Notes under the pieces: model-generated
Database searches by the model: none
What the model was told of the DNA's origin: nothing
The model's input: only the letters and a program-made list of their open reading frames with translations
Made by a program: the position numbers and the translations under genes
Part shown: positions 2,039 through 38,671 of the stretch, in pieces
Layout: each line of letters begins with the position of its first letter
Numbering within the stretch: position 1 is the stretch's first letter
Assembly (NCBI GenBank): GCA_963749075.1
Contig: CAVVLJ010000004.1
Location: 256,001 to 320,000, forward strand
Direction: 5' to 3'
Length of the DNA: 64,000 nucleotides
Source of the DNA: an uncultured Pseudomonadota bacterium
GTDB lineage: Bacteria > Pseudomonadota > Alphaproteobacteria > JACZXZ01

Positions 2039-2063
2039 TGAACCGTTGAGAGGAGGCTTCCCC

Positions 2064-2504: not shown

Positions 2505-2685
2505 CCCGCACGGTCGCACGAAGCTAGCCGCGCGCCCCTCGAGGCGCGCGGAGCCGGCCAGGCGAAGGGTCGCCTCTCTGGGGCGGCCCTTTGCACGCGC
2601 CCAATCTTTGATGCGGCGATCTTGCCGGCCAGGCGGGCCGATGGTAGCGTGCGCGCCTCGCAAACGGGGAGCGTGCCGGGCGGCC

Positions 2686-3024: not shown

Positions 3025-3059
3025 GCGGCTCTGCGCTCGGCGTGGCATGCTCAGTGCGG

Positions 3060-3081
3060 AAGCCGAGCATTGAGCTTGGCC
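3060..3081 (+). repeat. Left imperfect inverted repeat of the methylase-nuclease cassette
   Basis: AAGCCGAGCATTGAGCTTGGCC; the reverse complement of 6381-6401 is AAGCCGAGCATAAGCTTGGCC. Confidence 0.75.
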
Positions 3082-3092
3082 ACAGGGTGGTC

Positions 3093-4127
3093 CTATCGGG
3101 TTCTGAAGTCCGCCAGACGGGTGCATTCGATCAGGCGGTCAAGGTTCTGCAGAGTGAAGACCTTGCCGCCTGTGGCAAGCAATAGCTTCTTCATGTCTTC
3201 ACGCCGTACACTGAAGCCCCGCCCAGCGATGCAAGCGATGACCTGAAAATGCGGCTCTTGGCCGGCGCTGCGTTCGCGCATGCTCAGCGAATGGAGGTGT
3301 TGCACTCGGGTGACCTTGTCACGAGCCGTGCCGTCGTCCTCGGTGACCTTCGCCTCGATGACGGCGAATGGATTGAACTCGTTCGGGATGATGAAGTCAG
3401 GCGCCTGATCAAACCCTTCCACCCGCTCGGCCCGTTTGGTCTTGCGATAGCTGACCCCTCCTGCTGTCAGGGCGTCCTCTATCGCGGCCTCGAGCACGTC
3501 CCCGATCAGTTCGCTCACAGAGTCGCGGTGCCCCGCAAAGGGTCGTCCGAGAAAACGATCGTAGAGCATCATCGCATAAGGGACACCGAGATCGGCCAAA
3601 GGCTGGAGACTGGCAAGGCCGCGCTTTGTGTCGACCTTATCTAGGCGGTGCAGGACGCCCGCTGCGGTAGCCGGCGCACCCTCATCGAGAAGATGACAGG
3701 CAGTGACGACGAGAGCACTAAGCCGGTCGTCGGTAAGGCCTGCGCTCAGCCTAAGCGGTACCAGAGGGGCCAAGCGAATTTTGCGATCAAGCGCCCGCGC
3801 GGCACTTTGACTCACCGTCACGCCAGTGTGCTCGCTTGCAACATATGCCCACTCAGGAGGGGTAAATCCGAGTATCGTTCGCAGCACGATGAGGGCGATC
3901 GGCATACGGTGCGTAATCGCCAGTACCGAATCGGGCTGAATGTCGCGGAAGCCGCCGGTGCCGCGCTTGAGTGCTTCGTACCCTTGCTCGAATACCGGAT
4001 ACTCGATAAAGCCCGGCCCCTTCGGGAGCCTCATGAATTCAGAGTGCAGGCAGGCGAAGACCGCATCGACATAGGACTCAATATCGGCTTTGACCTGCTC
4101 GAGGGTCGCCTCAAAAGGAAATGACAT
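3093..4127 (-). CDS. Putative restriction endonuclease, PD-(D/E)xK fold (DpnII-like C-terminus, possible N-terminal HTH)
   Basis: E..IE...APDFIIP...VIEAK...G..RDK...IAGRGF; overlaps the methylase stop; lower GC. Confidence 0.7.
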   Translation of the reverse strand: MSFPFEATLEQVKADIESYVDAVFACLHSEFMRLPKGPGFIEYPVFEQGYEALKRGTGGFRDIQPDSVLAITHRMPIALIVLRTILGFTPPEWAYVASEHTGVTVSQSAARALDRKIRLAPLVPLRLSAGLTDDRLSALVVTACHLLDEGAPATAAGVLHRLDKVDTKRGLASLQPLADLGVPYAMMLYDRFLGRPFAGHRDSVSELIGDVLEAAIEDALTAGGVSYRKTKRAERVEGFDQAPDFIIPNEFNPFAVIEAKVTEDDGTARDKVTRVQHLHSLSMRERSAGQEPHFQVIACIAGRGFSVRREDMKKLLLATGGKVFTLQNLDRLIECTRLADFRTR

Positions 4128-6321
4128 CGCGCTCTTCTTCGCCATGACCATCTTCTCGGGCAAAAAGCGGCGTGCGTTCAACCGGCTCAAAATCGACGGT
4201 TGACCCTCTCTGGACGAAGCTGCCGATCACTGCGCTAAGGTCGCCGTAGGTGTCGACGACCTGGGCGATCTTCTTGAGACGCTTCTCCGTGGGTAACGTT
4301 CGGTCCCATCCCGTACGCAAGCGCCAGATCGCCATGCGCGTGAGATGTCCATAGACGATGCAGCGTGTGTCGCCGGCGGTCGGCTTCATCCCGGCGCTCC
4401 GAAGCTGGGCGAGTTCGTCGCGTACACTATCCGACAGCTGGCGGAGCGTGTCGAAAATTTGGCTGCGCCGCGCGCGGCCGTGCATACGGCATACGAAGAC
4501 CGTATCCACGATCGATGATCCGGTCCCATGGATGTGGATTGATCCCCCCATTTCCGCGGGACAGGGGATTGTCGCCGAGCACGTAAGCCCAGCATCAAGG
4601 ATCGCAACCCCGACTGCATGGTAGGCTTTCAACCGGTTATGGTGGAAAGTGAAGGCCAGGGGCGCTTCAGGCTTTAGTGCCCCCGCCATAGCAAGGTAGA
4701 CGGATGCAAGGCCTTCGGTAAAATGTTCGATGCCACGCGCTTGCGTGACGTTGCCAGTCAACTCGTCAATCGAACGTGTCGATCCGCGGTCGAAGCCCTC
4801 GAAACTCTCGCCCACCAGCCGACGGAGCCAGACATAGCAAAAATCCATCAGCTCGCCGTACTGAACATTTCCGAAATATGGAGGATCGGTGAAGACTGCG
4901 TCCAGGCTGGCCGGTTCCAGCGTTAGCGCAGTCGAGCTGGTGCAACGTAAGGTGATTGACCGTGGTCGACGGCCGTTGAAGCGCTCGCCAATCCATTCGC
5001 CTTTTATCGGCACAAATACCTTGCGGCCATGATCTCGCCGAACCTCGAAGGGCTCATCGCAGTAGCGCTTTGCTTTGTAATATTTCTCGACAATGTTGGA
5101 CCAGCCGCCCGAACCTACGCTGGCGCCTTCGCCGTTCGCAATGCCAAGGAGATTCGACTCGCAATAGACAAGGCCTACTGGAAAGCCATGAATAGAAAAA
5201 ATGTCGAGCGACTTCAGCGCCATCGTGTCATAGCGACAAAGCATATTCTGATAGCGCAGTAAATCAGACAGGTTGGTCGCAAGGGCTCGGCGGATGCGCT
5301 CGCTGGGGATGGCAGCGATCAGGCGGCAGCTTAGCTCCAACCCAAGAAGTTGGCGCTCGTTAAACATTTCCCGGTAGCGCTGATATCCCCAACGATGCAG
5401 CCGGTCCGTCTCATCGCCGGGCAGAATTTCTTGATCAGGTACATATTTCGGTGCCACGTCCCGCCAAAGTTCCACCACAGCTTTGTAACGCTCCAAGTCG
5501 TGCGCGTCGGGCTTCTTAAAAAATCGGCCGCGGTGCTTGCCCCGTCGTCGGGGGTTGTAATATTCGATCGCGAACATCCGATGCCGATGCGGTCCTGCTT
5601 CTGGCCGTGGATATGCGTTTATATGCCCGCAACGTTGGCAGGAGCACCGATTGCGCTTGGCCGGGCCGGGATCTCTCAACTGCTCTGAGCACGTCCCACA
5701 GCTGCCAGGGTGCTTCGGGTCGTCGACCTCATTGAGTTCGCCACAGCCAGGGCACACAAGGACATAGAGCGGGTGCCGAGTGTCGTCGGCAACGAGGTAG
5801 CCAGGAAATAAATCGATGTCCCGACCACAGTGCCGACAATCGATCACCTTAACCCAAAGAAAATATTTAACGGAAACGTCGCAGTCGCCGTAACGCGGAC
5901 AATTCGTGCGATAGGCCTGTCCGATCTCGGTGCCGAGGGTAGCCATCAGCTCCGCCGCGGCCCGGCGATAAGCGGCGAGATCGATATGCTCAAGCTCCTC
6001 GCGAACGATCCACGCGGCCATCGGATTGATATCGAACCCGAGCACATCGCAGCCAATACGATTGGCTTCGATGAGCGGCGTGCCGCCGCCCATAAAGGGG
6101 TCGGCAACCCTTCGTTCCGGGAAATCGTGCGTACGAAAGAAGCTTTCACGAAGCGGCTCGTCACAGAATTCGGCCAAGGCCAATCCCCGGAAGAGAGTAC
6201 CGGGGCGCCGCGCGAACCATTTGTGGACGGCGATGATGGGCCGGTAGTTCTGCTGAATTTGTTTCTCCTTCAGCGCCATCGCCGCGATGAAGGCTGTATC
6301 GAACTGTCTTTCGATGGACAT
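4111..6321 (-). CDS. DUF1156-type amino (N6-adenine-type) DNA methyltransferase with Zn-ribbon insert
   Basis: HKWFARRP N-terminus, DPFMGGG motif I, TDPPY motif IV, four CxxC pairs. Confidence 0.88.
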   Translation of the reverse strand: MSIERQFDTAFIAAMALKEKQIQQNYRPIIAVHKWFARRPGTLFRGLALAEFCDEPLRESFFRTHDFPERRVADPFMGGGTPLIEANRIGCDVLGFDINPMAAWIVREELEHIDLAAYRRAAAELMATLGTEIGQAYRTNCPRYGDCDVSVKYFLWVKVIDCRHCGRDIDLFPGYLVADDTRHPLYVLVCPGCGELNEVDDPKHPGSCGTCSEQLRDPGPAKRNRCSCQRCGHINAYPRPEAGPHRHRMFAIEYYNPRRRGKHRGRFFKKPDAHDLERYKAVVELWRDVAPKYVPDQEILPGDETDRLHRWGYQRYREMFNERQLLGLELSCRLIAAIPSERIRRALATNLSDLLRYQNMLCRYDTMALKSLDIFSIHGFPVGLVYCESNLLGIANGEGASVGSGGWSNIVEKYYKAKRYCDEPFEVRRDHGRKVFVPIKGEWIGERFNGRRPRSITLRCTSSTALTLEPASLDAVFTDPPYFGNVQYGELMDFCYVWLRRLVGESFEGFDRGSTRSIDELTGNVTQARGIEHFTEGLASVYLAMAGALKPEAPLAFTFHHNRLKAYHAVGVAILDAGLTCSATIPCPAEMGGSIHIHGTGSSIVDTVFVCRMHGRARRSQIFDTLRQLSDSVRDELAQLRSAGMKPTAGDTRCIVYGHLTRMAIWRLRTGWDRTLPTEKRLKKIAQVVDTYGDLSAVIGSFVQRGSTVDFEPVERTPLFAREDGHGEEERDVISF

Positions 6322-19071: not shown

Positions 19072-20394
19072 ATGACGACAGCAGCCGGAGGTACGAGCGA
19101 GGCCTGGCCGATCGGGAAGCGGCAGATGGTGACCGCGATCATCGCCTCGTCGCTCGGATGGGCGCTCGATCTCTTCGACCTTTTCATCCTGCTCTACGTG
19201 GCGCCGGTCATCGGCAAGCTTTTCTTTCCCTCGCAGTTTCCCACGGTCTCGCTCGCCGCGGTCTATGCCTCCTTTGCGGTGACGCTTCTGATGCGCCCGT
19301 TCGGCTCGGCGCTCTTCGGCTCCTACGCCGACCGCTTCGGGCGGCGCGGCACCATGATCGTGGCGGTCATCGGCGTCGGCATCAGCACGGCGCTCTTCGG
19401 AGCACTCCCGACCATCGCCCAGGTCGGCCTGCTGGCGCCGGCCATCTTCCTGGCACTGCGCCTGGTGCAGGGCGTCTTCGTCGGCGGCGTGGTGGCCTCC
19501 ACCCACACCATCGGCACCGAGTCCGTGCCGCCTTACTGGCGCGGCGCCATGTCGGGCCTCGTCGGCGGCGGCGGCGCCGGCATCGGAGCGCTCCTCGCCT
19601 CGATCGCCTATTTCGCCACCACCGAGGTCTTTCCCGGCGACGCCTATGCGGTGTGGGGCTGGCGCTTCATGTTCTTCTCCGGGATCATCAGCTCGGTCCT
19701 CGGCTTCTTCATCTTCAACCGTCTCGAGGAGTCGCCGGTCTGGTCGGCGCTCAAGACGGGCCGCGGCGCTGGCGCGGTCGTGCGCGCGCCGGTGCGCACG
19801 CTCTTCTCCCGCGCCTATCTGCCGATCCTCCTCGTCAACCTGATGATGACCACAGGCGGCGGCGCCGGCTATTACCTGACCTCGGGCTATCTGCCGACCT
19901 TCCTCAAGGTGGTGAGCAAGCTGCCCAGCCAAGCCACCTCCTTCATCCTCATCGCCGGCAGCATCGTCGCCATCTTCGCCTCGGTCGCCGCCGGGCACTG
20001 CAGCACCATCTGGGGGAGGAAGCGCGTGCTGCTGGCGCTGGCGCTGATCCGCATCGTCGTGCTGCCGCTCTGCTTTCTCGGCATGGCGGGGACGGCTGAG
20101 ACGGGCGTCATCGCCGCCTATGGGCTGGTGCTGACCTTCTTCGGGAATGCCGGCTACGCGCCGCTGCTGATCTTCCTCAACGAGCGCTTCCCCACGGCGC
20201 TGCGCTCGACCGGCACCGGCCTTTCGTGGAACATCGGCTTCGCCATCGGCGGCCTGATGCCGACCTTCGTCTCGCTCGCCTCGCCGACGCCCCAGGATCT
20301 GCCCGCCATGCTGGCGATCTTCGTCTTCGCCATCTCGGTGCTCTTCCTCGCCGGCGCGCTCATCATCCCGGAGACGCGGGGCAATTTCAAATAG
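19072..20394 (+). CDS. hmfT: MFS furan transporter
   Basis: GWALDLFDLFILL, VASTHTIGTESVP, GGGGAGIGALLAS resemble HmfT as recalled; multiple TM segments. Confidence 0.82.
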   Translation: MTTAAGGTSEAWPIGKRQMVTAIIASSLGWALDLFDLFILLYVAPVIGKLFFPSQFPTVSLAAVYASFAVTLLMRPFGSALFGSYADRFGRRGTMIVAVIGVGISTALFGALPTIAQVGLLAPAIFLALRLVQGVFVGGVVASTHTIGTESVPPYWRGAMSGLVGGGGAGIGALLASIAYFATTEVFPGDAYAVWGWRFMFFSGIISSVLGFFIFNRLEESPVWSALKTGRGAGAVVRAPVRTLFSRAYLPILLVNLMMTTGGGAGYYLTSGYLPTFLKVVSKLPSQATSFILIAGSIVAIFASVAAGHCSTIWGRKRVLLALALIRIVVLPLCFLGMAGTAETGVIAAYGLVLTFFGNAGYAPLLIFLNERFPTALRSTGTGLSWNIGFAIGGLMPTFVSLASPTPQDLPAMLAIFVFAISVLFLAGALIIPETRGNFK

Positions 20395-21409
20395 GCCGGC
20401 GCCGGTGGTGCGCCGCAGCGCGCGGCTGGCGCCCGCGTCGCCTGGCGATCCAGCCGGGTTGGTCGCAGATGTGCCCGAGGAACTCGACGACGGTATGGGC
20501 TCCGAGATAGGAGGTGATGCCGGTGCCCACGTCGAGCTGGGGATTGACCTCGACGAGGTCGCAGCCGACGACGTTCGTGCGCTCCGCCAGCGCCTTGAGC
20601 GTGCCGCTGAGCTCCGCATAGCTCATGCCGTTGGGCTCCGCCGAGACGCAGCCGGGCACGAGCGGGAGGTCGAGCACGTCGATGTCGATGCTCACGTAGC
20701 ATGCGGCACCTTGGGGGACCACCTCGGCGAGGCCGCGCGGCGCGAGGCGGCGGAACTCCGTCATGGTGATCACTCGGTTGCCGTCGCGGACGGAGTCCTC
20801 GACCATGTCCGGCGAATGGCGCAGGCTGCGGATGCCGACCTGCGTCAAGCTCTCGACGTGCGGCATCGGGCTGATGTGCCGGAAGGCGTGCATGTTGGTG
20901 AAGCGGAGATCGTGGATGAAGGGCGCATAGTCGGTGTGGGCGTCGAAATGGACGACGTGGAGCGGCTGGCTGTAGGCGCGGACGATCGGATAGGTGATCG
21001 AATGGTCGCCGCCCAGCACCACGACCAGGACCTTCCGCGCGAGGAGTGCGCGGACCATGGCGGTCACGTTGTCGAAGGTGCCCTCGACGTTGGTCGGCAG
21101 GATATCGGCGTCGCCGGCATCGACGATCAGCCGGTGGCGGAGCTCGTAGTCGAGATATTGCTTCCGCGTCTCCGGGTTATAGAAGCCGCCGCCGCCCGAG
21201 ACGAAGCGCAGCGAGTGCTCGCGCAGCGCGCGCGGCCCCATGCGCGAGCCGGGAAGGAAGGGCACGCCCTCGTCGAACGGCACGCCCATCACGGCGACGG
21301 CGCCCTCCAGGCGATCGAGGTCGGTTGAGATGGGGCCGCGCAGAAAGCTCGGTATGCCGACGAAGGGCTCGTCGAGCCGGCCCGCCGGCGCGCGTCGTGT
21401 TGCCGTCAT
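20387..21409 (-). CDS. Agmatinase/ureohydrolase family protein
   Basis: GVPFD, GGDHSIT, HFDAHTD, SIDIDVLD, EVNP. Confidence 0.9.
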   Translation of the reverse strand: MTATRRAPAGRLDEPFVGIPSFLRGPISTDLDRLEGAVAVMGVPFDEGVPFLPGSRMGPRALREHSLRFVSGGGGFYNPETRKQYLDYELRHRLIVDAGDADILPTNVEGTFDNVTAMVRALLARKVLVVVLGGDHSITYPIVRAYSQPLHVVHFDAHTDYAPFIHDLRFTNMHAFRHISPMPHVESLTQVGIRSLRHSPDMVEDSVRDGNRVITMTEFRRLAPRGLAEVVPQGAACYVSIDIDVLDLPLVPGCVSAEPNGMSYAELSGTLKALAERTNVVGCDLVEVNPQLDVGTGITSYLGAHTVVEFLGHICDQPGWIARRRGRQPRAAAHHRRRPI

Positions 21410-21430
21410 GAAGACCCCGCGATAGTGAGA

Positions 21431-21907
21431 CTATTCCGCCGCCTCGGGCTTGCCCGTGGGCTGCGTCCAGGTGCGGGCGGCTTCATCGTCCTCGGCGCGG
21501 GCGGCGACCCAGCGCTCGCCCTGCGGCGTCTCCTCGAGCTTCCAGAAAGGCGCCTTGGTCTTGAGCCAGTCGACGATGAAGCGGCAGGCCTCGAAGGCGG
21601 CATCTCTGTGGGCGGAGGCGACCGCCACCAGAACGATGCGCTCGCCGGGCTCGAGGCGGCCGTAGCGGTGGACGATCAGGCTCGCGGCGAGCGGCCAGCG
21701 CGCTCTCGCCTCGGCCTCGATCTCGGCGAGCTTGCGCTCGGTCATGCCGGGATAATGCTCGAGCGTCATGGCGCCGACGGCACCCGCGGGTGCCACGTCG
21801 CGCACAAGACCTACGAACGTGACGACGCCGCCGATCTTGTGGTCCCCCTCGACGAGTGCCGCTACCTCGGCGGCCGCATCGAAGTCCTCACGCTGCACGC
21901 GGATCAT
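21431..21907 (-). CDS. moaE: Molybdopterin synthase catalytic subunit
   Basis: FVGLVR, LEHYPGM, HRYG, SAHR, LKTKAPFWK. Confidence 0.95.
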   Translation of the reverse strand: MIRVQREDFDAAAEVAALVEGDHKIGGVVTFVGLVRDVAPAGAVGAMTLEHYPGMTERKLAEIEAEARARWPLAASLIVHRYGRLEPGERIVLVAVASAHRDAAFEACRFIVDWLKTKAPFWKLEETPQGERWVAARAEDDEAARTWTQPTGKPEAAE

Positions 21908-21909
21908 GC

Positions 21910-22161
21910 TCAGCCTCCCGTGAGCGGCGGGAAGAGCGCCACCTCGTCGCCGGCGGCGAGCGGGTGATGGGGCTGCGCGAATTCCTGGTTGACCGCGACG
22001 CGCACCACCGAGAGATCGCGCAAGGCCGCGGCATAGCCGGGCCCCCGCGACTTTAGCCATTCGAGGAGCGAGGCCACGTCCGCCACCTCCGCGGGCGGCG
22101 TCACCTCCTCCTCGGCCAGGCCCGTGCGCTGCTTGAGCCAGGCGAAGTACATCAGCCTCAT
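21910..22161 (-). CDS. moaD: Molybdopterin synthase sulfur carrier
   Basis: YFAWL, VAVNQ, C-terminal FPPLTGG. Confidence 0.95.
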   Translation of the reverse strand: MRLMYFAWLKQRTGLAEEEVTPPAEVADVASLLEWLKSRGPGYAAALRDLSVVRVAVNQEFAQPHHPLAAGDEVALFPPLTGG

Positions 22162-23414
22162 CAGCTCACCTCGCTGAAGGGGAGGAAATCGACCATGCTC
22201 CCGCGCTCGAGGTGGGTCAAGCTCTCCGGCAGCTCGGCCAGGCCGTCCGCCTCGACCATCGAGGAGAGGATTCCCGCCCCCTCGCGCGGGAACTTGCGCG
22301 CGACGATGCCGCCCATGCCGTCGGGCACCAGGCGCGCGCGCACCCATTCGCGCCGGCCGTCCTTCTTCTTGTGCTCGAAATCGGCGCGCACGCGGTAGAG
22401 CACCGGCTCGGTCTCGGAGCCGCCCATGAGGCGCAAGAGGAGCGGGCGGGCGAAGCGCAGGAAGGTCACCATCATGGCGACCGGATTGCCGGGCAGGCCG
22501 AGAAAGGCGGTGCTGCCGATCTGGCCGAAGGCGAGCGGCCGGCCCGGCCGCATGGCGAGGCGCCAGAAATGCAGGCGGCCGAGCGCCTCGAGTGCTGAGC
22601 GCACGTGATCCTCCTCGCCGGTCGAGACGCCGCCCGAGGTAATGATGGCGTCATGGCCGGAGGCCGCCTTGCCGAGCGCCCGCTCGATCGCCGCCCGCCG
22701 GTCGGGGAGGATGCCGAGATCGGCGACGAGGCAGCCGAGGCGCTTCAGGAGGGCCGCGAGGGTGAAGCGGTTGGCGTCGTAGACGGCGCCTGGCGGTGCG
22801 GTGCTGCCGGGCTCGGCGAGCTCGTCGCCGGTCGAGAACACGGCGACGCTGAGCGCGCGGCGGAGTGCCAAGGACGTGCGCCCGATCGAGGCGGCGAGGC
22901 CGATATCCTGGGGCCGCAGGCGCCGCCCGGCCTGGAGGATGACGGCGCCCGCCTTCACGTCCTCGCCCGACTTGCGCCGGTTGGCGCCGCGCTTGATGCC
23001 GGGGCTGACGATCACCGCAGCGCCCTCGCTGCGGCAATCCTCCTGCATCATCACGGTGTCGGCACCCGCCGGCATCACGGCGCCGGTGAAGATGCGCACG
23101 GCCTGGCCGCGCTCGAGCGGCCGGCCGAGAGGATGGCCGGCGGCGGCGCGCCCGGCGATGGCGAGCCGCGTCTCGCCGGCCGCGGCGAGATCGTCGAAGG
23201 CGAGGGCATAGCCGTCGACCGCCGAATTGTCGTGGGGCGGCACGTCGCGCCCGGCCACCACGTCCTCGGCGAGGACGCGGTCGAGCGCAGCGCCGAGCGG
23301 CACGGTCTCGGCGTCGGCCACGCAGGCGACGCGCGCGGCCAAGAGCGCCAAGGCCTCGTCGACGCTCATCAGGCGGCCGCCATGGGCGAAGCAGTCGTCG
23401 CTCAGCTGGGCCAT
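22161..23414 (-). CDS. moeA: Molybdopterin molybdenumtransferase
   Basis: NSAVDGYA, IFTGA, STGDEL, SGGVSTG, PGRP, GLPGNP. Confidence 0.95.
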   Translation of the reverse strand: MAQLSDDCFAHGGRLMSVDEALALLAARVACVADAETVPLGAALDRVLAEDVVAGRDVPPHDNSAVDGYALAFDDLAAAGETRLAIAGRAAAGHPLGRPLERGQAVRIFTGAVMPAGADTVMMQEDCRSEGAAVIVSPGIKRGANRRKSGEDVKAGAVILQAGRRLRPQDIGLAASIGRTSLALRRALSVAVFSTGDELAEPGSTAPPGAVYDANRFTLAALLKRLGCLVADLGILPDRRAAIERALGKAASGHDAIITSGGVSTGEEDHVRSALEALGRLHFWRLAMRPGRPLAFGQIGSTAFLGLPGNPVAMMVTFLRFARPLLLRLMGGSETEPVLYRVRADFEHKKKDGRREWVRARLVPDGMGGIVARKFPREGAGILSSMVEADGLAELPESLTHLERGSMVDFLPFSEVS

Positions 23415-23421
23415 GGCCGCC

Positions 23422-23940
23422 TCACGCCACGCCGCGCTCGCGCGCCGCGAGCCCGGCATGAGACACGATGAAGCCGGCGATGGCTGCGGTGTCGTCGATG
23501 TCGAACCGCGGGATGCGCAAGTTCGCCACCGGCCCGTCGCTCGCCAGCGCCACCACGTACGGATCGTCCAGGCAGAGGAGCGGCTTGCCGAGCGCCACGC
23601 GGTGGACCTCGAGCTTGTCGTGGGCGTGCGTCCTGAAGCCCTCGATGAGGAGGAGGTCGACCGGCGTCATGTAGCGGACGAGCTCCTCGACCGTCGGCTC
23701 TCGAGCGCCGCGCAGCTCGTGTTGGAGGGCGAAGCGCTTGGCCGAGCATACCATCACCTCGGTGGCGCCCGCCTGCCGGTGGCGGTAGCTGTCCTTGCCC
23801 GGCTGGTCGATGTCGAATTCGTGGTGGGCGTGCTTGATGGTCGAGACCCTGAGGCCGCGGCGCACGAGCTCGGGCAGCAGCCTGACCATGAGGGTGGTCT
23901 TGCCGCTGTCGCTCCATCCTGCAAGGCCGAATATCTTCAT
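23422..23940 (-). CDS. mobB: Molybdopterin-guanine dinucleotide biosynthesis protein B
   Basis: GWSDSGKTTL, IKHAHH, GKDSYRH, LLIEGF. Confidence 0.93.
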   Translation of the reverse strand: MKIFGLAGWSDSGKTTLMVRLLPELVRRGLRVSTIKHAHHEFDIDQPGKDSYRHRQAGATEVMVCSAKRFALQHELRGAREPTVEELVRYMTPVDLLLIEGFRTHAHDKLEVHRVALGKPLLCLDDPYVVALASDGPVANLRIPRFDIDDTAAIAGFIVSHAGLAARERGVA

Positions 23941-24021
23941 GCTCCGCTCGCGTCTGCCAAGCTATAGGCTATTGGCGGCGGGAATCGGCAAAGTCAAGTG
24001 AGAGGGACGGCGCCGGGCCGC

Positions 24022-24642
24022 TCAGGGGCTCGCCGGCGTGGCGCCCTTGACCGCACCCTTGGCCGGCGGCCGGGCCGGCGTGCGCTGCCGGTCGATGTGG
24101 CGCAGGCCCTCGCGCAGATAGTCGTAGCCCGTGATGAGGGTGAGCACGGCCGCGGCCCACAGGCCGACCACGCCGATCTCGCGCGTGTAGGGCACCACCC
24201 AGTCCCCGGCGTCGCCCACGATGAGGAAGCCGATCGCCACCATCTGGATGCCGGTCTTCCACTTGGCGAGCCTCGTCACCGGCATGCCGACGCTCAAGCT
24301 GGCGAGGAACTCGCGCAAGCCCGAGACCAGGATCTCGCGGCAGAGGATGAGGATGGCGGGAAGCAGCGTCAGGCCTCCGATGCGATCGAAAGCGGCGAGG
24401 AGGAGAAGCGTGGTGGCGACGATGAGCTTGTCGGCGATGGGGTCGAGGAGCTCGCCCAAGAGCGACTGCTCGCGCCAGGTGCGCGCGAGATAGCCGTCGA
24501 GGTAATCGGTGATGCCGGCGAGCGTGAAGAGGCCGCAGGCCGTCCAGCGCGCGCCGTTGCCCTCGACCCAGAAGAGGCCGACGAGGATCGGGATCACCGC
24601 GATGCGCGAGATGGTGAGCAGATTCGGGATGCTGGTGATCAT
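24022..24642 (-). CDS. pgsA: CDP-diacylglycerol--glycerol-3-phosphate 3-phosphatidyltransferase
   Basis: PNLLT..R, TDYLDGYLAR, LDPIADK, REILVSGLRE; follows uvrC. Confidence 0.95.
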   Translation of the reverse strand: MITSIPNLLTISRIAVIPILVGLFWVEGNGARWTACGLFTLAGITDYLDGYLARTWREQSLLGELLDPIADKLIVATTLLLLAAFDRIGGLTLLPAILILCREILVSGLREFLASLSVGMPVTRLAKWKTGIQMVAIGFLIVGDAGDWVVPYTREIGVVGLWAAAVLTLITGYDYLREGLRHIDRQRTPARPPAKGAVKGATPASP

Positions 24643-24681
24643 CGGGCAAGCCTTGCGTGCCGGGGCTGCGATATTAGGCCG

Positions 24682-26748
24682 CTAGCCCTCGGGATGGAAG
24701 TGATCATAGATCTTCCGGGCGACGGCGCCGCGGATGCCGGCAACGGCCTCGAGATCGGCGAGGCCGGCGCGCGCCACGCGTTCGGCCGAGCCGAAGTGGT
24801 GGAGGAGGGCCTTCTTGCGCTTGGCGCCGATGCCCGGCACCTCGTCGAGGCGCGAGCGCAGCGCCGACTTGGCGCGGCGCACGCGATGGCTGCCGATGGC
24901 GAAGCGGTGCGCCTCGTCGCGCAGGCGTTGGAGGAAATAGAGCACGGGATCGCGCGGCTCGAGGAGCAACGGCGGGCGCTCGGGGAGGAAGATGCGCTCC
25001 CGCCCGGCGTTGCGCTCGGGCCCCTTGGCGATGGCCGCCACCGCCACGTCGCCTATGCCGAGATCGGCGAGCACGCCGAGTGCGGCATTGAGTTGGCCCA
25101 GGCCGCCGTCGATCAGGATGAGCTCGGGCCAGTGTCCGCGCGTCCGCTCGGGGTCCTCCTTGAGCGCGCGCGCGAAGCGCCGCGTCAGCACCTCGCGCAT
25201 CATGCCGTAGTCGTCGCCCGGCACGATCTGCGGCGGTGCTAGCTCCTCATCCTTCGAGACGCGGCTTCGCCGCTCCTCAGGATGAGGAGCGAGGGGCGAG
25301 CCCTCATCCTGAGGAGGCCGCGCAGCGGCCGTCTCGCAGGATGAGGCGGGCGCCGCCGCCGTCTTGATGTTGAACTTGCGGTAGGCGCCCTTCACGAAGC
25401 CCTCGGGCCCGGCCACGATCATGGCGCCGACCGCGTTCGTGCCCATGATGTGGCTGTTGTCGTAGACCTCGATGCGCTGGGGCGGGCCCTCGAGGCCGAG
25501 CGTGGCGGCGAGCGACTCGAGGAGCTTGCGCTGGCTCGAGCTTTCCGCGAGGCGGCGGCCCAGTGCCGCCTGGGCATTGGCGAGGGCATGCTCGACCATG
25601 TTGCGCTTGGCGCCGCGCTTGGGCACCGAGAGCTCGACGTGGCGGCCGGCGCGCAAGGAGAGCGCCTCGGCGATGAGCGCGCGCTCGGGCACCGCGTGGC
25701 TCAGCAGCACGAGGGGCGGCGGCGGCTTGTTCTCGTAGAACTGCCCGATGAAGGCGCCGAGCACCTCTTCCGTGCCAAGCGTCTTCTCGTGGCGCGGATA
25801 ATAGGCGCGGTTGCCGTAGTTGCGCCCGGCGCGGAAGAAGAAGACCTGGACGCAGGTCACCCCGCCCGCCTGGTGGGCGGCGATCACGTCGGCCTGGTCG
25901 ACGCCCGCCACGTTGATGTCCTGCTTCGCCTGGATCTGGGTGAGCGCCTTGATGCGGTCGCGGTAGATCGCGGCACTCTCGAAATCGAGGCCGCCTGCCG
26001 CCTCCTGCATGAGGGCGGCGAGGCGGCGCTGGATGTCCTGGCTGCGCCCGGCGAGGAAGGCGCGCGCCTCGCGCACCAGCTCGTCGTAGGCCTCCCGCCC
26101 GACCTTGCCCACGCAAGGCCCGCTGCAGCGCTTGATCTGGAAGAGGAGGCAGGGCCGCGTGCGGCTGGCGAACACGCCGTCCGAGCAGGAGCGCAGGAGG
26201 AAGGCGCGCTCGAGCGCCGCCAGCGTCTGGCTGACGGCGCCCGCCGAGGCGAAGGGCCCGAAATATTCGCCCGGCCGGCTGCGCGCGCCGCGGTACTTGG
26301 CGATCTGCGGCCATTCGTGGTCGCCGGTGATGAGGATGTAGGGGAAGCTCTTGTCGTCGCGCAGCAGCACGTTGTAGCGCGGCGCATGGCGCTTGATGAG
26401 GTTGCTCTCGAGCAGCAGCGCCTCGACCTCGGTGTGGGTCGTCACCACCTCGACCGCCGCGGTCTCGGCGACCATGCGCTGGATGCGGTAGGAGAGGCGC
26501 TGCGGCTGCGTGTAGCTCGCGACCCGCTTGCGCAGCTCCTTGGCCTTGCCGACGTAGAGCACGTCGCCCCGCGCATCGAGCATGCGATAGACGCCCGGAG
26601 CCTCGGGCATGGTCTTGAGGGCCGTCGCGATCGCCGCGCTGCCGCGCGCGAGCCTGCCCGCCGGAAGAGCCGTGTCCGGCGTCTCGGCGTCCGCGCTCTC
26701 TTGCTCCGCTCGAAGTGCGGCGCGCTCCATTTCGCCCATGGCCGTCAT
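24682..26748 (-). CDS. uvrC: Excinuclease ABC subunit C (with in-frame repeat insertion)
   Basis: [43 protein letters not shown], HhH. Confidence 0.96.
25242..25346. repeat. Palindromic repeat family B (two inverted hairpin units) inside uvrC
   Basis: GCTCCTCATCCTTCGAGACG...CTCCTCAGGATGAGGAGC plus CCTCATCCTGAGGAG...GTCTCGCAGGATGAGG; same family at 58338-58458. Confidence 0.88.
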
Positions 26749-26872
26749 TGTCGTCCGCTCTCTCGGCCGGTCAACCGTGCGCCGCAGCGAATTCTGGCGC
26801 CCGTCAATTTTTCACCACGATCTCCAAGCAATTCCAAGGGGATCGCTTTTGAGGCTCGGCGCCTCGAGTCGG

Positions 26873-26993
26873 ATATCCACGATTCCTGTGGGTAACTCTG
26901 TCGAAAATCGCCGCCGACGATAGCCCCTATCAAATGCCGCAAGGAATTCACGTAAATGCCTAAATTAGAGGCAATTATTATAACCCATTGAAT
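26873..26993. promoter_or_regulatory. DARS-like DnaA-box cluster with Fis/NtrC-like palindrome and IHF-like site
   Basis: ATATCCACG-ATTCC-TGTGGGTAA-CTC-TGTCGAAAA; TGCCT-N7-AGGCA (26957-26973); TAACCCATTGAAT (26981-26993). Confidence 0.6.
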
Positions 26994-27118
26994 TTCAATG
27001 CTTATTATGAAGTCAAGTGTAAAGAAACTGCCAAAGAAGCGATTTTGTGCGCAGCAGGCGCATGGCTAGCCGGGGCTGATTTTCGCTGTGCAAAACCTCG
27101 CCGGCGGCAGCGCGGCAA

Positions 27119-27556
27119 TTAACTTAACTTCGAAAGATTCGTGCGCGAATGCGGCTGAAACCGTTCGATTTCCACCCCGACTCCGGCGGCATCGGCATAG
27201 ACGTCGAGCTTCTCGAGACGCACCCTGGCCGCCTCCACGCGCGGGTCGGCGAGGCATAGCGCCGCAATGCGTTCGGCAAGGGTCTCGACCAGGTTGACGT
27301 GGCCTTTGGCAACCAGCCGCCGCACCGCCGAGATCACCTCGTCGTAGCAGACGACCGTCTCGTAGCGGTCCGCGAGGACGTTGGCCTCGTCGCGCACGGT
27401 GAGCGCCAGATTGAGGCGCACCCGCTGGCTGCGCCCGCGCTCATGGGCATGCACGCCGAGCTCGGCGGCGAGCTCGAGGTCGCGCACGAAGAGGCGGTGG
27501 GTGCCGCGCGGTGCCGTTGCGTCCTGCCGCACGCGCGGCTGCTCGGTCTCGCTCAT
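27119..27556 (-). CDS. folB: Dihydroneopterin aldolase
   Basis: LGVHAHE...Q.V.LNL, VCYD, NLVETLAERIA, EKLD, VGVEIER. Confidence 0.9.
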   Translation of the reverse strand: MSETEQPRVRQDATAPRGTHRLFVRDLELAAELGVHAHERGRSQRVRLNLALTVRDEANVLADRYETVVCYDEVISAVRRLVAKGHVNLVETLAERIAALCLADPRVEAARVRLEKLDVYADAAGVGVEIERFQPHSRTNLSKLS

Positions 27557-27739
27557 GGCAGCCTCAGCACCCTGAGAGCGACCGGAGGCCCGCACTCTGG
27601 GGGCCCGCTCCAGATCGTACGCCGTGGAAAGCCTTCCTCGCGGAGCCCGCACCCTGGGGACGCCATGGCGAAGCCGGCAGGAGAACCCTAACCGCAAGCG
27701 CCGTCCCCGTCCAGCATTGCCTCGCGCTGCCCTGCCGCG

Positions 27740-28510
27740 TCAGGCGGAAGCGGGGGCGCCCGGCGGGCTCGGCGGACCGCCGAGATGGTAGCCGCCGTCG
27801 AGCACGACGAGCTGACCGGTCATCGATTTCGCCGCCAGGATGAAGCGCAGCGCCGCGGCGACCTCTCCCACCGTGGCGCCGCGCCCGAGAAGGGTGGCGC
27901 GCCATTGGCGCTCGAACTGCGCCGCCGTCTGGCCGGGTCCCGGCAGCACCGGGCCGGGCCCGATCGCGTTCACCCGGATGCGCGGCGCCAGTGCCAGCGC
28001 CAGCGTCTGGGTCAGCGTCATCAGGCCGGTCTTGCTCACCGTATAGGACACATAGTGCGGCGTGAGCCGCAGCACGCGGCGATCGAGGAGGTTGACGACG
28101 GCGCCCTCGGCCGCGGCCGGAAGCTGGCGCGCGAAGGCCTGGCTCAGCACGAAGGGCGCTCTGAGGTTCGCCTCCATGTGGAGGTCCCACGAGCGGCGGC
28201 TGGCGTCGAGCGCCTCGTCGCGCTCGAAGCGCGCGGCGTTGTTGACGAGGAGGCCGAGGGGCCCCAGGGCGGCTGAGGCGCGCGCCACGAGAGGTGCGGT
28301 CTCCTCCTCGCGCGCGAGGTCGGCCGCGAGGGCAACCGCACGGCCGCCGAGTGCGGCGATCTCCGCGACGACGGCCTCCGCCGCGTCGGCGTGGCTGCGG
28401 TAATGCACGGCCACCGCGAAGCCTTGGCGGGCAAGATCGAGGGCGAGCGCGCGGCCGATGCGCTGGGCAGCACCCGTGACCAGGGCCGTCTTGGGGATGC
28501 TCTCGCTCAT
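27740..28510 (-). CDS. SDR oxidoreductase (pteridine reductase-like)
   Basis: TGAAQRIG, NNAA, YTVSK, RVNAIGPG; upstream of folB. Confidence 0.88.
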   Translation of the reverse strand: MSESIPKTALVTGAAQRIGRALALDLARQGFAVAVHYRSHADAAEAVVAEIAALGGRAVALAADLAREEETAPLVARASAALGPLGLLVNNAARFERDEALDASRRSWDLHMEANLRAPFVLSQAFARQLPAAAEGAVVNLLDRRVLRLTPHYVSYTVSKTGLMTLTQTLALALAPRIRVNAIGPGPVLPGPGQTAAQFERQWRATLLGRGATVGEVAAALRFILAAKSMTGQLVVLDGGYHLGGPPSPPGAPASA

Positions 28511-28536
28511 CCCTGTGCCATGGCCGCGGCGGCGGC

Positions 28537-29644
28537 TCAGCCGGCAGCGAGGCCGGCGATGGCCTGGCGCAGGACCTGCCGGCTGCGGAACAGCACCATC
28601 TCCTGCCAGTCGGGCACCTCGGGGTAGAAATGGCGGCGGATCTGCGCCTTGATGCGGCGCGTCTCGGGGGCGGCCCAGTCCGCGTTGCTGTGATTGTGCA
28701 GCCAGTGGTCCTCGCGCAGCGCGCGCTGGCCGGAGGTGTGCGAGGGGTAGGTGCCGTACTCGAGGGCGACGTAGCTCACGCTCTCGCCGAGCTTGCGGTG
28801 CCATTCCTCGCCGGCGAGACCTTGCTTGGGCACCGAGGAGGAGGTGCCGAGGGTGGGCTCGGTGAGCGACTGGCCGTACCACGCCCTGGCGCGCGCGTGG
28901 GCGGCGCCGCCCGGCTCGTCGCCCGAGATCGGCTCGCCGTAGCCGAAGGGGCCGAGCCCGGTGTGGTAGTCGACGACGGCCACGAGCGCGCGCTCGGCCA
29001 GGCGGTGCTCGGCAATGATGCGCTCGAGGGTGCGGCGCGCCCAGGTGGGGGCGGTGCCGCCGTAGAAGGTGCCGCCCGGATGGCGGTACTGGCCGCCGCT
29101 CCTCGCGATGTTGAACTGCCGCTCGCCGTGCCGCGCGCGGTAGTCCTCCAGGCGCTTCATCGCCGCGTCGAAGAGGGGGCCGGAGAGCGCTCTCGGCACG
29201 ACGGCCTCGGCCAGCTCGTCATAGCCCGGGTTCTCCGGCAGGGGCTTGGCGAAATCGACGAAATTGCGGTTGAGGTCGCAGCCCTCCTCGGTCACGCGGC
29301 GCAGCCAGGCGAAACCGTGGGGATTGATGGCGTGGACGAAGAGCATCGCCGTGTCGCGGCCGAGGGGTGCGGCGGCCGGCCCGAGCAGCCAGTCGAGCTG
29401 GGCGCCCGAGCCGCAGAAGCCCTCGACCCCGTGGGTCGCCGAGACGGTGACCAGCACCTTGGCCGCGTCCTGTGGGCCGAACCAGGCGGCATCCGTCGCG
29501 AGCTCCTCGCCCTCCGGCCCGGAAAGCGGATTGCGATAGCTCGTGAGGGTGCCGCCGGCAAGCGCCGCCGCGGCGAGGAACTTTCCGCGCGCGCCGCGGT
29601 AATCGGCCGAGAAACGGGTGGCGAGGCTCGTCTCGAGGCTGCAT
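28537..29644 (-). CDS. M14-like metallopeptidase (DUF2817); start codon out of frame by 1 nt
   Basis: FSADY..AR.KFL, SATHGVEG, INPHGFAWLRR, DLNRNF, DYHTGLG, LEYGT; ATG at 29642-29644 is one base out of frame. Confidence 0.8.
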
Positions 29645-29899
29645 GGCCGGGGTCATCGGGGCCTCTCGTCATGGCGGGTCGGCCGCCATCCTGCCGCCTC
29701 GCGCGGCAAAAGTGAACGGGCGTTTCCCCGGCGCCGGCGGCCGCGGGCACCGCTCGAAGGAGGGGTGCCGCACCGGGGGCTGGCCGCCATCTGGCGGGGG
29801 TGCCGCAATATCCATAGCGGGAACCTGGGCTCCATCGCTATAAGGTAACAGTCCCGGGTTAGTTAATTTGGGATTTAGCCGCTATGTTGGAGGATGGTC

Positions 29900-35391: not shown

Positions 35392-37566
<2,175 letters not shown>

Positions 37567-37642
37567 GGCCCCATTATATGGGATGGCGCGGCGCCTAAGC
37601 GAGGGGCTGTGCCGGGGCGGCGGCTCTGCCATAATCGCGGGC

Positions 37643-38671
37643 GTGAGTGCCGATGACGCCATGGTGATCGAGACGGTCGAGATGCATACGGGCGGCGAGC
37701 CCGTGCGCATCGTGGCCGCCGGCTACCCGCCGGTCGAGGGCTCGACCATCCTCGAGAAGCGCCGCTACGCGCGCGAGCGGCTCGACGAGCTCAGGCGCAT
37801 GCTGATGTTCGAGCCGCGCGGACACGCCGACATGTACGGCGTCATCCCGGTCGAGCCCGACTTGCCCGAGGCCGACATGGCCGTGCTCTTCATGCACAAC
37901 GAGGGCTACTCGACCATGTGCGGCCACGCGGTGATCGCCCTCGGGCGCTACGCCGTCGACCGCGGCATCGTGACGGCGGCGGTGCCCGAGACCGAAGTCA
38001 GGATCCAGTGCCCCTGCGGCCTGGTGCGCGCCAGGGTCGAGGTCGAGGAGGGGCCCGCCGGGCCGCTCAGCGGCGCCGTCGCCTTCGAGAGCGTGCCGGC
38101 CTTCGCCTACGCCCTCGATGCCGAGGTCGAGGTGCCCGGCCACGGCCGTCTCAGGCTCGACATCGGTTACGGCGGCGCCTTCTACGCGGTGGTGCCGGCG
38201 GAGCGCCTCGGCCTCGATGTAAAGCGCTCGCCGGTCGCCGCCCTGGTCGAGGCGGCCGACCGGGTGACCCTTGCCGCCAAGGCGCAGATACCCATCGAGC
38301 ACCCGGGCGATGCGGACCTCGCCTTCCTCTACGGCACCATCCTCAGCGACGGGCGCGACGCCCTCGAGGAGGCCGCCACGGCGAACGTCTGCGTCTTCGC
38401 GGCGCGCGAGGTCGACCGCAGCCCGACGGGGAGCGGCGTGATCGCGCGCATCGCCTTGCAGGCCGCGCGCGGGCTGATCGAGCTCGGCGAGCGCCGCCGC
38501 TTCGAGAGCCTGACCGGCGCCATCTTCACCGGCAGGCCGCTCACGCGCACGCGTGCCGGGCGCTTCGAGGCGGTCACCGTCGAGGTCGCCGGCCGCGCCC
38601 ACTACACCGGCTCCGCCCGCTTCACCCGCGAGCCCGACGATCTCCTGGGCGGCGGCTTCCTGCTGCGCTAG
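37643..38671 (+). CDS. Proline racemase family, Cys/Thr type (trans-3-hydroxy-L-proline dehydratase-like)
   Basis: [23 protein letters not shown]. Confidence 0.85.

Follow-up and report, generated by a model that had tools for sequence, protein, structure and literature searches.

Are DnaA-reactivating sites (DARS) confined to E. coli and its relatives, or does such a site also lie upstream of the excision-repair gene uvrC in Alphaproteobacteria? The question is raised by a short non-coding stretch between uvrC and folB in 64 kb of DNA from an uncultured alphaproteobacterium (the whole of this stretch is called the window below), where a first-pass annotation had proposed a DARS-like element. 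A DARS is characterised in vitro by promoting the release of ADP from ADP-DnaA, whereby ATP-DnaA is regenerated, and in vivo by a fall in ATP-DnaA and initiation on its deletion and a rise with additional copies; the DARS2 subtype needs an IHF-binding site for activation. Alphaproteobacteria reportedly inactivate DnaA through HdaA, a finding ascribed to work of Collier and Shapiro in 2009. The definition of DARS and the rationale for a head-to-head box pair at 5 bp have been set out previously (PMC6868365), and the established examples all come from E. coli, candidates having been reported for related gammaproteobacteria and nearby betaproteobacteria (PMC5742627, PMC4245941, PMC6090056). We found no description of an alphaproteobacterial module of this kind in the searchable literature; Fujimitsu et al. 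(2009), with predicted DARS candidates in other species, lies outside that search.

The three-box core

The core follows, letter for letter, the layout that had been read at first pass, ATATCCACG-ATTCC-TGTGGGTAA-CTC-TGTCGAAAA at 26873-26907 (Table 1): boxes I and II are opposed across 5 bp, and box III, oriented as box II, lies 3 bp beyond it, which is the core geometry of a DARS. The boxes are degenerate, as had also been stated, with two, one and two mismatches in boxes I, II and III, respectively, against the 9-mer TTATCCACA. Under a chance model of independent bases that allows at most 2 mismatches per box and 5 overall, with the spacers set to 5 and 3 bp, 1.2e-6 such arrangements are expected per 64 kb and about 1e-4 per 5-Mb genome, and the triple is the sole one within the window, even when both spacers are left free over 0-11. 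Lone near-consensus DnaA boxes are unenriched in the window (4 versus 1.6 expected, with 9 of 100 shuffles reaching 4). The unusual feature is the arrangement of the boxes, rather than the number of single boxes.

Table 1. Features of the uvrC-folB region, with positions in the window
Feature	Position	Strand	Remark
uvrC	24682-26748	-	Pfam GIY-YIG, UVR, UvrC RNase H, HHH; downstream of module
Promoter-like TTGACC-16-GACAAT	26747-26774	-	just before/overlapping first ATG of uvrC ORF
DnaA box I, ATATCCACG	26873-26881	+	nearest box to uvrC; opposed to box II
Box I/II spacer	26882-26886		5 bp, ATTCC on +; GANTC site formed with next base
DnaA box II, TGTGGGTAA on +, TTACCCACA on minus	26887-26895	-	
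DnaA box III, TGTCGAAAA on +, TTTTCGACA on minus	26899-26907	-	same orientation as box II
Semi-conserved word CGTGAATTCC on minus	26943-26952	-	GTGAAAsCC-type in relatives (alignment consensus)
Palindrome TGCCTAAATTAGAGGCA	26957-26973	.	TGC-N11-GCA, A/T-rich centre, NtrC-type candidate site
IHF-like site ATTCAATGGGTTA	26981-26993	-	one mismatch; 73 bp to box III
CTTGAC, -35-like hexamer	27012-27017	-	fixed 17 bp from IHF-like motif
Distal fourth DnaA box TTTTGCACA on minus	27087-27095	-	oriented as II and III; 179 bp to box III
folB	27119-27697	-	Pfam FolB, E 7e-25; upstream of module

Conservation among relatives was assessed in the 80 nearest uvrC loci of public genomes, of which four offer under 220 bp of upstream sequence, too little for a judgement, and the module alignment comprises 27 sequences, with that of Tistrella pTM3 counted besides the 80 loci. 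The alignment of related upstream regions, which had been proposed as a check on the first-pass annotation, bore out its box geometry and spacing: the full three-box core is present in intergenic DNA at 25 of the 80 loci and on Tistrella pTM3, and at the 25 loci it carries no indel, always lies just upstream of uvrC and takes one orientation. The strict box triple was found in 17 of the 80 loci, all directly upstream of uvrC and in a single orientation. A head-to-head pair with at most 3 mismatches occurs in 24 of the 80 and a pair with 4 in one more, and the best pairs of the remaining 55 have 5-9. Nine further loci (five of Ferrovibrio type, L046, L057, L068 and L072) carry boxes II and III without box I and retain much of the module; thus, its retention there is independent of the head-to-head pair.

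The three boxes differ in how they are conserved across the 27 module sequences, none of which has an indel in the core. The inner GTGGA of box I is kept in 26-27 of them, and its position 9 is non-consensus in all 27, a deviation found likewise in E. coli DARS1 and DARS2. Each column of box II is conserved in 24-27 sequences, most relatives having the exact consensus TTATCCACA, and box III follows the pattern TTnnCnACA, with C in 20, A in 25, C in 27 and A in 27. The length of the box I/II spacer is invariant (27/27), and the sole conserved base within it adjoins box II (G, 22/27); GANTC occurs in the spacer of eight sequences. The ATTCC of E. coli recurs in just 4 of the 27, so the identity of the spacer is no evidence of homology.

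A module of fixed spacing beyond the core

The core forms one end of a module of approximately 220 bp (26873-27095), within which the spacings are constant to 1-3 bp across relatives. The two accessory sites that the first-pass annotation had placed beyond the boxes, a TGCCT-N7-AGGCA palindrome and a one-mismatch IHF-like site on the minus strand, are both present in the window and conserved at fixed distances in relatives. The palindrome has the form TGC-N11-GCA, which 24 of the 27 sequences carry at an offset of -78 to -80 relative to box II, and its TGC and GCA arms are invariant in 24-26 of 26. It had been called Fis/NtrC-like, and the NtrC half of that label is upheld by the identity of TGC-N11-GCA with the published NtrC site motif (PMC10746234). 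The Fis half is less apt. The palindrome fits a degenerate Fis 15-mer in 15 of the 27 sequences; no Fis site of the DARS2 type was found next to the distal box, and Fis is reportedly confined to those gammaproteobacteria that are akin to E. coli (PMC4245941).

The IHF-like site keeps its position in the strict consensus in 9 of the 27 sequences and in a relaxed form in 16. Further out, TTGAC recurs at -121 to -123 in 14 sequences; no convincing -10 follows the CTTGAC of the window, the hexamer 17 bp downstream being the IHF-like word and a poor -10. The far end of the module is marked by a distal box TTnTnCAC(A/G), near -200 in 22 of the 27 sequences and at -188 in two more. By eye, no conserved GG-N10-GC of a sigma-54 promoter was seen near the NtrC-type and IHF sites, in the window or in the alignment. 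The palindrome had also been flagged as terminator-like on the plus strand, and this candidate was rejected because no plus-strand gene reads into it and because its conserved part is TGC/GCA, not a G+C-rich stem. As a separate observation, a word similar to CGTGAATTCC stands at the corresponding distance in E. coli DARS1 in the nhmmer alignment, which may be chance.

Gene context and phylogenetic distribution

All 27 full cases of the module adjoin uvrC, and the upstream neighbour differs between loci (folB, an SDR gene, a Na/Ca exchanger gene, a Usp gene or an inverted folB). The spacing between core and uvrC also varies, box II lying 65-321 bp from the start of the tblastn match in 24 loci and 577 bp from it in L012. 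The promoter-like site at the start of uvrC in the window is a single one, against 0.2 expected in shuffles, and a TTGAC word downstream of box I was noticed by eye in several relatives. The window also contains uvrB (35392-37722), near which no DnaA box with at most 1 mismatch was found.

In a tree of UvrC, the 97*-supported side holds 37 rows, of which 24 have the full module, 8 a partial one and 5 none; on the other side, the module is present in basal branches and absent from the crown of 39 Hyphomicrobiales and Caulobacterales rows. This distribution is compatible with an ancestral module that was inherited vertically and may have been lost in Hyphomicrobiales and Caulobacterales. The module is absent from the Caulobacteraceae and Hyphomicrobiales rows among the 80 loci, the orders of the usual model species, which offers a reason for its having been missed.

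Cultured carriers are Tistrella mobilis KA081020-065, Roseiterribacter gracilis TMPK1 and Albidovulum sediminis FT324. The Tistrella mobilis copy resides on pTM3, a 1.13-Mb replicon for which PLSDB types a plasmid replicon, a relaxase and mating genes. A blastn search of the module against the plasmid collection gave no match, and no module was found in the uvrC upstream regions of Azospirillum chromid copies (2 of 10 records), a Sphingomonas plasmid copy, Methylobacterium bullatum, Neisseria gonorrhoeae, Ralstonia solanacearum or Xanthomonas sacchari.

Comparison with DARS1 and DARS2 of E. coli

The DARS1 core against which the locus had originally been compared proved to be the exact MG1655 sequence upstream of uvrB (L001 1108-1142), and 26 of its 35 bases are identical to the window. 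DARS1 and the module share a strongest box II, a box I that is off-consensus at position 9 and a location upstream of a nucleotide-excision-repair gene (uvrB there, uvrC here). In addition, an nhmmer profile of the alphaproteobacterial module matches DARS1 with an E value of 6.6e-7 over 83 profile positions. In contrast, box III of DARS1 points towards its gene (uvrB), whereas the module has box I towards uvrC. DARS1 requires no protein activators (PMC11724364).

The overall build of the module is closer to that of DARS2, in the mutH region, although the profile match to DARS2 is weak (E 0.4). There, boxes I and II are likewise opposed across 5 bp with box III 3 bp beyond; an IHF-like 13-mer lies 74 bp from box III, compared with 73 bp in the module and in both cases on the box III side, at a position consistent with the PciI site named in PMC11724364; and box III is separated by 176 bp from a further, consensus box, compared with 179 bp to the distal box of the module. 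Both have a site for a third factor that suits a protein with a Fis-type DNA-binding domain, and their total lengths are similar, approximately 220-256 bp. The differences are equally clear. Relative to the core, the IHF motif and the distal box of the module are on the opposite strand from those of DARS2, and the palindrome of the module stands between the core and the IHF site rather than beyond the latter. The palindrome, moreover, suits NtrC (TGC-N11-GCA) rather than the mapped DARS2 Fis sites, and no Fis sites that overlap low-affinity DnaA boxes, as FBS2-3 do at DARS2, were found next to the distal box. Finally, DARS2 is near mutH, and the module stands before uvrC.

Alternative explanations

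The locus might be no more than a regulatory region of uvrC, where DnaA, jointly with IHF and an NtrC-type protein, turns transcription of the gene down or up, so that repair follows the replication cycle or nitrogen status and the nucleotide state of DnaA is unaffected. We consider this unlikely, yet several observations speak for it. The module is never found away from uvrC despite the changing upstream gene, which suggests a role in uvrC transcription, one that the first-pass annotation had left unweighed. Boxes II and III persist where box I is gone, the module contains a conserved CTTGAC, and there are promoter-like sites on the downstream side of box I, the end of which is just 33 bp from the uvrC ATG in Tistrella. 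In E. coli, DARS1 doubles as a DnaA operator, DnaA repressing the uvrB p3 promoter through its boxes (PMC6015884). However, a distance of 65-577 bp between core and uvrC, set against the rigid inner spacing, is atypical of simple operators or activator sites, and a simple operator requires neither the 5-bp head-to-head pair with its 3-bp tandem nor an IHF site nor a fourth box placed as in DARS2. A uvrC-directed role is, in addition, compatible with the DARS reading, both functions being combined in DARS1. Which way the module would act on DnaA has to be weighed as well, because its composition is shared with datA, for which the opposite biochemical outcome is expected. Minimal E. coli datA accommodates four DnaA boxes and one IHF site in approximately 200 bp (PMC11724364); it contains the same tandem of a weak box, 3 bp and a consensus box followed by G that makes up boxes III and II, has its IHF site 56 bp away and also has a head-to-head pair. 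In the module, similarly, one IHF-like site stands between the distal box and the core. The module profile matches the datA tandem boxes (E 1e-5), so the box-based similarity is not specific to DARS; with the tandem boxes and the single IHF site shared, composition does not fix the direction of the effect. A datA-like locus, at which ATP-DnaA and IHF would promote ATP hydrolysis, or a plain sink that titrates DnaA, either of which would lower the initiation potential, is nonetheless quite improbable in our judgement: the head-to-head spacer of datA is 3 bp and its pair is split from the tandem, on the far side of the IHF site, whereas the pair of the module has the DARS-defining 5 bp and abuts the tandem box, and the profile match to DARS1 is both stronger and longer than that to datA.

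A replication origin, either the oriC that these lineages use or one that serves a secondary replicon, would also present DnaA boxes in a fixed architecture. The Cori-type oriC of Caulobacter has DnaA boxes and an IHF site in an A/T-rich non-coding stretch, and the module is alike in this respect, with its four boxes, its IHF-like site and a visibly A/T-rich stretch of approximately 100 bp in a genome of 69% G+C. It differs from the Cori type in having neither a skew switch nor origin-linked genes. The GC-skew check that had been suggested for excluding oriC gave no origin-type switch, the bulk skew being +0.008 on the left and +0.003 on the right, a weak signal of limited power in 64 kb. Third-codon-position skew is dominated by coding-strand bias and too noisy for a replication-strand signal. 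Ten co-oriented genes cross the site (20387-29652) rather than diverging from it, upstream genes are co-directional with uvrC in most of the related loci with annotated upstream ORFs, and no dnaA, dnaN, hemE, parAB or gidAB occurs in the 64-kb window, which counts against an origin. In the alignment, the A/T-rich part is occupied by conserved protein-site motifs rather than by free unwinding sequence, and the module of Tistrella mobilis is carried by the plasmid-typed pTM3. We therefore regard an origin as very improbable. It is scarcely credible that the likeness to DnaA boxes is incidental and that another dimeric regulator binds the palindrome TATCCAC-N7-GTGGATA, or that the region encodes a structured RNA. 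Boxes I and II do form a near-perfect 21-bp palindrome, but two more boxes, III and the distal one, retain the orientation and the conserved columns that DnaA boxes should have. No Rfam match at E up to 1 was found in 26000-28000, which argues against a structured RNA, and no conserved fold was found from the IHF site to box III, the consensus energy being -0.03 kcal/mol and the pairs being those of the invariant TGC/GCA only.

A candidate DnaA-IHF assembly site of the DARS class

We assign the segment 26873-27095, with moderate confidence, to the DARS class as a conserved non-coding candidate site of DnaA-IHF assembly, built most like DARS2. What stands of the DARS-like element that was originally proposed is the core geometry, its conservation, and distances of the IHF-like site and distal box that are near those of DARS2; the Fis part is better recast as an NtrC-type site. 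The present comparisons agree best with a DnaA-remodelling locus of the DARS2 kind, which may control uvrC as well, with nucleotide exchange predicted from the geometry alone.

We propose that DnaA bound at the strong box II would recruit DnaA to box I in head-to-head and to box III in head-to-tail orientation. IHF would bend the DNA sharply and fold the distal box back onto the core; because the IHF site lies about midway between the distal box (approximately -196) and box III (approximately -8), such a bend would bring the distal box to the core. The head-to-head DnaA pair would then release ADP, after which DnaA could rebind ATP. NtrC or a relative, with its Fis-type DNA-binding domain, may at the palindrome take the part that Fis plays at DARS2. 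Since the module is embedded in the upstream region of uvrC, it probably makes uvrC transcription dependent on DnaA occupancy as well, in the way that DARS1 does for the uvrB p3 promoter.

A broader evolutionary scenario can be formulated, one that we offer as speculation and regard as decidedly unlikely to hold in full. A DnaA-recharging locus could already have existed in a proteobacterial ancestor before Alpha- and Gammaproteobacteria diverged, with the module as its alphaproteobacterial version, and could have remained next to excision-repair genes ever since, uvrC in the one case and uvrB of E. coli in the other. An NtrC-family protein would be the original cofactor at the palindrome and Fis at DARS2 a later substitute whose DNA-binding domain is of the same type. 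Nitrogen or growth status would then feed into replication licensing via NtrC and IHF at this single site, and Hyphomicrobiales and Caulobacterales, in losing the module, would have turned to other means of resetting DnaA.

The analysis delimits a defined module of approximately 220 bp, with four separately mutable DnaA boxes and candidate IHF and NtrC-type sites. As many distant alphaproteobacteria keep this module, DARS-type control is suggested outside the relatives of E. coli. If the predicted activity is true, DNA sites that recharge DnaA would be widespread among proteobacteria and no enteric peculiarity, and this strategy would be linked to excision repair and perhaps to nitrogen signalling.

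Results

The first-pass annotation had described three DnaA boxes upstream of uvrC, and the bases and positions that it gave match the sequence exactly at window 26873-26907. Also present are the palindrome TGCCT-N7-AGGCA (26957-26973) and the one-mismatch IHF-like word ATTCAATGGGTTA that it had placed nearby. The core lies in the spacer between uvrC and folB, before uvrC. The spacer comprises 370 bp with a G+C content of 52%, against 69% for the window. Under a model of independent bases at window composition, allowing at most two mismatches per box and five overall, with the spacers set to 5 and 3 bp, 1.2e-6 chance triples are expected per 64 kb and ~1e-4 per 5 Mb genome, and the triple was unique within the window even when both spacers were allowed to range from 0 to 11. 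Single DnaA boxes with at most one mismatch are not enriched in the window (4 observed versus 1.6 expected); the signal is the arrangement of the boxes, not single boxes.

Features of the module and flanking genes in the window; offsets are counted from the first base of box II in the uvrC-forward orientation, and conservation refers to the 27 full sequences
Feature	Position	Strand	Offset	Conservation	Remark
DnaA box I ATATCCACG	26873-26881	+			2 mismatches to the 9-mer TTATCCACA
Spacer box I/box II, ATTCC					5 bp between boxes I and II
DnaA box II TGTGGGTAA	26887-26895	-			1 mismatch to TTATCCACA
Spacer box II/box III, CTC					3 bp between boxes II and III
DnaA box III TGTCGAAAA	26899-26907	-			2 mismatches to TTATCCACA
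Palindrome TGC-N11-GCA, A/T-rich centre	26957-26973		-78 to -80	24/27	
IHF-like word	26981-26993	-	-97 to -100	9/27 strict consensus; 16/27 relaxed	
CTTGAC	27012-27017		-121 to -123	14/27	
Fourth DnaA box TTnTnCAC(A/G)	27087-27095		about -200	22/27, plus two at -188	
uvrC	24682-26748	-			flanks module
folB	27119-27697	-			flanks module
uvrB	35392-37722	-			8.6 kb from module

Genome contigs were scanned with the window UvrC, which confirmed 593 relatives, and the best 80 loci were used with uvrC set to the plus strand, so that the survey covers the 80 nearest UvrC relatives and a few plasmid-collection records. A strict triple (boxes I and II with ≤2 mismatches each, box III with ≤3) was found in 17 of these best 80 loci, always directly upstream of uvrC and, as in the window, with box I closest to the gene. 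The best head-to-head pair, sought between positions -900 and +150 relative to the start of the match, has ≤3 mismatches in 24 loci, four in L054 and 5-9 in the remaining 55; four of the 80 (L017, L051, L063 and L031) have <220 bp upstream and are too short to judge. The box geometry read in the window is thus kept before uvrC in 25 of the 80 loci (full), and nine more (partial) have lost box I but retain boxes II and III together with much of the module (the Ferrovibrio-type L019, L026, L030, L037 and L038, plus L046, L057, L068 and L072).

Together with the window and Tistrella mobilis, the 25 loci make up 27 full sequences, and column counts over these revealed no indel within the core. The columns of box II are conserved in 24-27 and the inner GTGGA of box I in 26-27 of the sequences, box III retains TTnnCnACA, and box I deviates from the consensus at position 9 in every case (consensus base in 0/27). 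The 5-bp spacer is unconstrained except for its first base (G in 22/27) and reads ATTCC, as in E. coli, in only four, so that the occurrence of ATTCC in both E. coli and the window does not argue for common descent. The CcrM methylation motif, GANTC, is located in this spacer at 26882-26887 and recurs there in the module sequences, eight of the 27 having it by a raw count that ignores kinship (the window, L002, L006, L008, L010, L029, L056 and L059); replication-dependent hemimethylation at this site could time DnaA binding.

The Ferrovibrio-type variant, at about 3660-3960 in L019, L030, L037 and L038 and 2950-3250 in L026, retains boxes II and III, the distal box and the IHF-like word. It also has an additional inverted box that is near-consensus and matches the consensus exactly in L026, L030 and L037, and a different conserved, promoter-looking stretch takes the place of box I. 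In L057 (Acetobacteraceae), the module at 931-1145 has a degenerate box I and lies ~1.6 kb upstream of uvrC, not adjoining it.

Quick maximum-likelihood inference on 81 UvrC rows (LG+G4, SH-aLRT support) gave an unrooted tree that divides in two at a support of 97. One side is Rhodospirillales-like (Stellaceae, Rhodovibrionaceae, Thalassospiraceae, Acetobacteraceae, Elioraeaceae and Roseiterribacteraceae), and its 37 rows comprise 24 full (the window counted), eight partial and five without the module. The other side, with 44 rows, has the module on basal branches (Rhodothalassiaceae and Albidovulum full, Parvibaculum partial), and its crown of 39 Hyphomicrobiales and Caulobacterales rows is without it. 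This distribution fits an old element that was later lost, gain and loss not being formally separated on an unrooted tree.

Printed in register, the upstream regions revealed a larger conserved module with the core at one end, in which ~50 variable bases lie between the palindrome and boxes III, II and I. Outside its build set, an nhmmer profile of the module (246 positions) matched Tistrella mobilis pTM3 at 3.9e-21, L057 at 6e-15 and the E. coli DARS1 (DnaA-reactivating sequence) locus at 6.6e-7 over 83 profile positions, and DARS2 at an E of 0.4 only. TGC-N11-GCA with an A/T-rich centre is described as the NtrC motif in PMC10746234, where gel shifts and footprinting verified it for Sinorhizobium meliloti. 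Rfam gave no match for the module region, and no conserved fold was found from the IHF site to box III (consensus energy -0.03 kcal/mol), the invariant TGC and GCA being the sole predicted pairs. A semi-conserved word of GTGAAAsCC type is present at offsets -59 to -50 (window 26943-26952), ~40 bp past box III; the nhmmer alignment places a similar word, possibly by chance, at the corresponding distance in DARS1 (L001 1143-1187), and the DARS1 flank holding it is required for full activity (PMC4585315).

The DARS1 core given in the first-pass annotation proved identical to that in the MG1655 bioD-uvrB spacer (L001 1108-1142), and the window core matches it at 26 of 35 positions. DARS2 (L082 5136-5170) has the same 9-5-9-3-9 layout as the window, and box I of both E. 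coli loci is non-consensus at position 9, as in all 27 module sequences. This layout defines the DARS core, and the 5-bp spacer has been linked to an ADP-releasing head-to-head DnaA dimer (PMC6868365). The distances are close as well: from box III it is 74 bp to the IHF-like 13-mer of DARS2, versus 73 bp in the window, and 176 bp to a further (consensus) DnaA box, versus 179 bp. The DARS2 13-mer adjoins a PciI site that is located at IBS1-2 according to PMC11724364. However, the IHF word and distal box of the module are on the opposite strand relative to the core, and its palindrome is placed between core and IHF site. In composition the two run parallel: DARS2 combines DnaA boxes, an IHF site and Fis sites, and the module combines DnaA boxes, an IHF-like site and the NtrC-motif palindrome; NtrC has a Fis-type DNA-binding domain. 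No DnaA box with ≤1 mismatch was found near the window uvrB, and the DARS-like core therefore accompanies uvrC in this genome, whereas in E. coli it accompanies uvrB.

Elsewhere in the window, G+C is reduced at 2001-6321 (0.58-0.64 versus about 0.70). A 736-aa ORF at 4111-6321 (minus) matched models of DNA methyltransferases associated with defence (DUF1156 MTase at 3e-24; also HmaB and PglX), and a 365-aa ORF beside it had no family match; this region may be what remains of an acquired restriction-modification or BREX-like system. A small ORF at 62789-63133 (minus) matched the TacA1-like antitoxin family (Pfam PF08681, E 5e-22).

Discussion

One competitor to a DARS is a locus like datA, the DnaA-ATP hydrolysis locus of E. 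coli. There, a weak box, 3 bp and a consensus box followed by G form a tandem identical in layout to boxes III and II, matched by the module profile at 1e-5, and an IHF site lies 56 bp away. However, the head-to-head pair of datA has a 3-bp spacer and lies beyond the IHF site, on its far side. The module therefore has parts in common with both E. coli loci, and only the 5-bp head-to-head pair abutting the tandem box points to DARS. A replication origin is very improbable. No skew switch marks the site (bulk GC skew +0.008 left and +0.003 right, a 64 kb window having little power for skew), ten same-strand genes span it, dnaA, dnaN, hemE, parAB and gidAB are absent from the window, and the upstream genes are co-oriented with uvrC in most related loci with annotated upstream ORFs. 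The A/T-rich part of the module is taken up by conserved motifs, and in Tistrella mobilis KA081020-065 uvrC and the full module are carried by the 1.13 Mb replicon pTM3, typed in PLSDB as having a plasmid replicon, relaxase and mating genes.

Control of uvrC transcription as the only role would account for the full module always adjoining uvrC while the upstream gene differs: among ORFs chosen by third-position G+C and named via Pfam, ten loci have folB in this place, inverted in one of them, seven have an SDR gene and the others have different genes. Box I ends 33 bp before the uvrC start in Tistrella, a promoter-like TTGACC-16-GACAAT occurs at window 26774-26747, and E. coli DnaA represses uvrB p3 via the DARS1 boxes (PMC6015884). 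Yet the core lies at no constant distance from uvrC (65-321 bp in 24 loci, 577 bp in L012), whereas distances within the module are constant within a few bases. By analogy with DARS1, both roles can coexist. The pTM3 uvrC ORF (L083 2491-4932) encodes 813 aa, with an N-terminal extension of ~170 residues in repetitive GAT/GAC/GCG-rich DNA ahead of the part matching the window UvrC.

In the literature searched, we found no alphaproteobacterial DARS-type element and no DnaA boxes before uvrC; the candidates of Fujimitsu et al. 2009 may include alphaproteobacterial ones. A paper using the term 'DARS-like' concerns Vibrio. Reviews citing Fujimitsu et al. 2009 attribute such sequences either to 'many proteobacterial species' or to gammaproteobacteria and nearby betaproteobacteria.

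We are highly confident that the module is a selected DnaA-binding regulatory module; that its function is nucleotide exchange, as its box geometry suggests, is an evenly balanced proposition. In such a mechanism, DnaA would occupy the consensus box II first and recruit further DnaA, in head-to-head orientation at box I and head-to-tail at box III. An IHF bend at about -100 would fold the distal box back onto the core, since its centre (about -196) and that of box III (about -8) are roughly equidistant from the bend. The head-to-head pair would then release ADP. Like Fis at DARS2, an NtrC-family protein bound to the palindrome may modulate this process, and occupancy of the core may also determine uvrC transcription.
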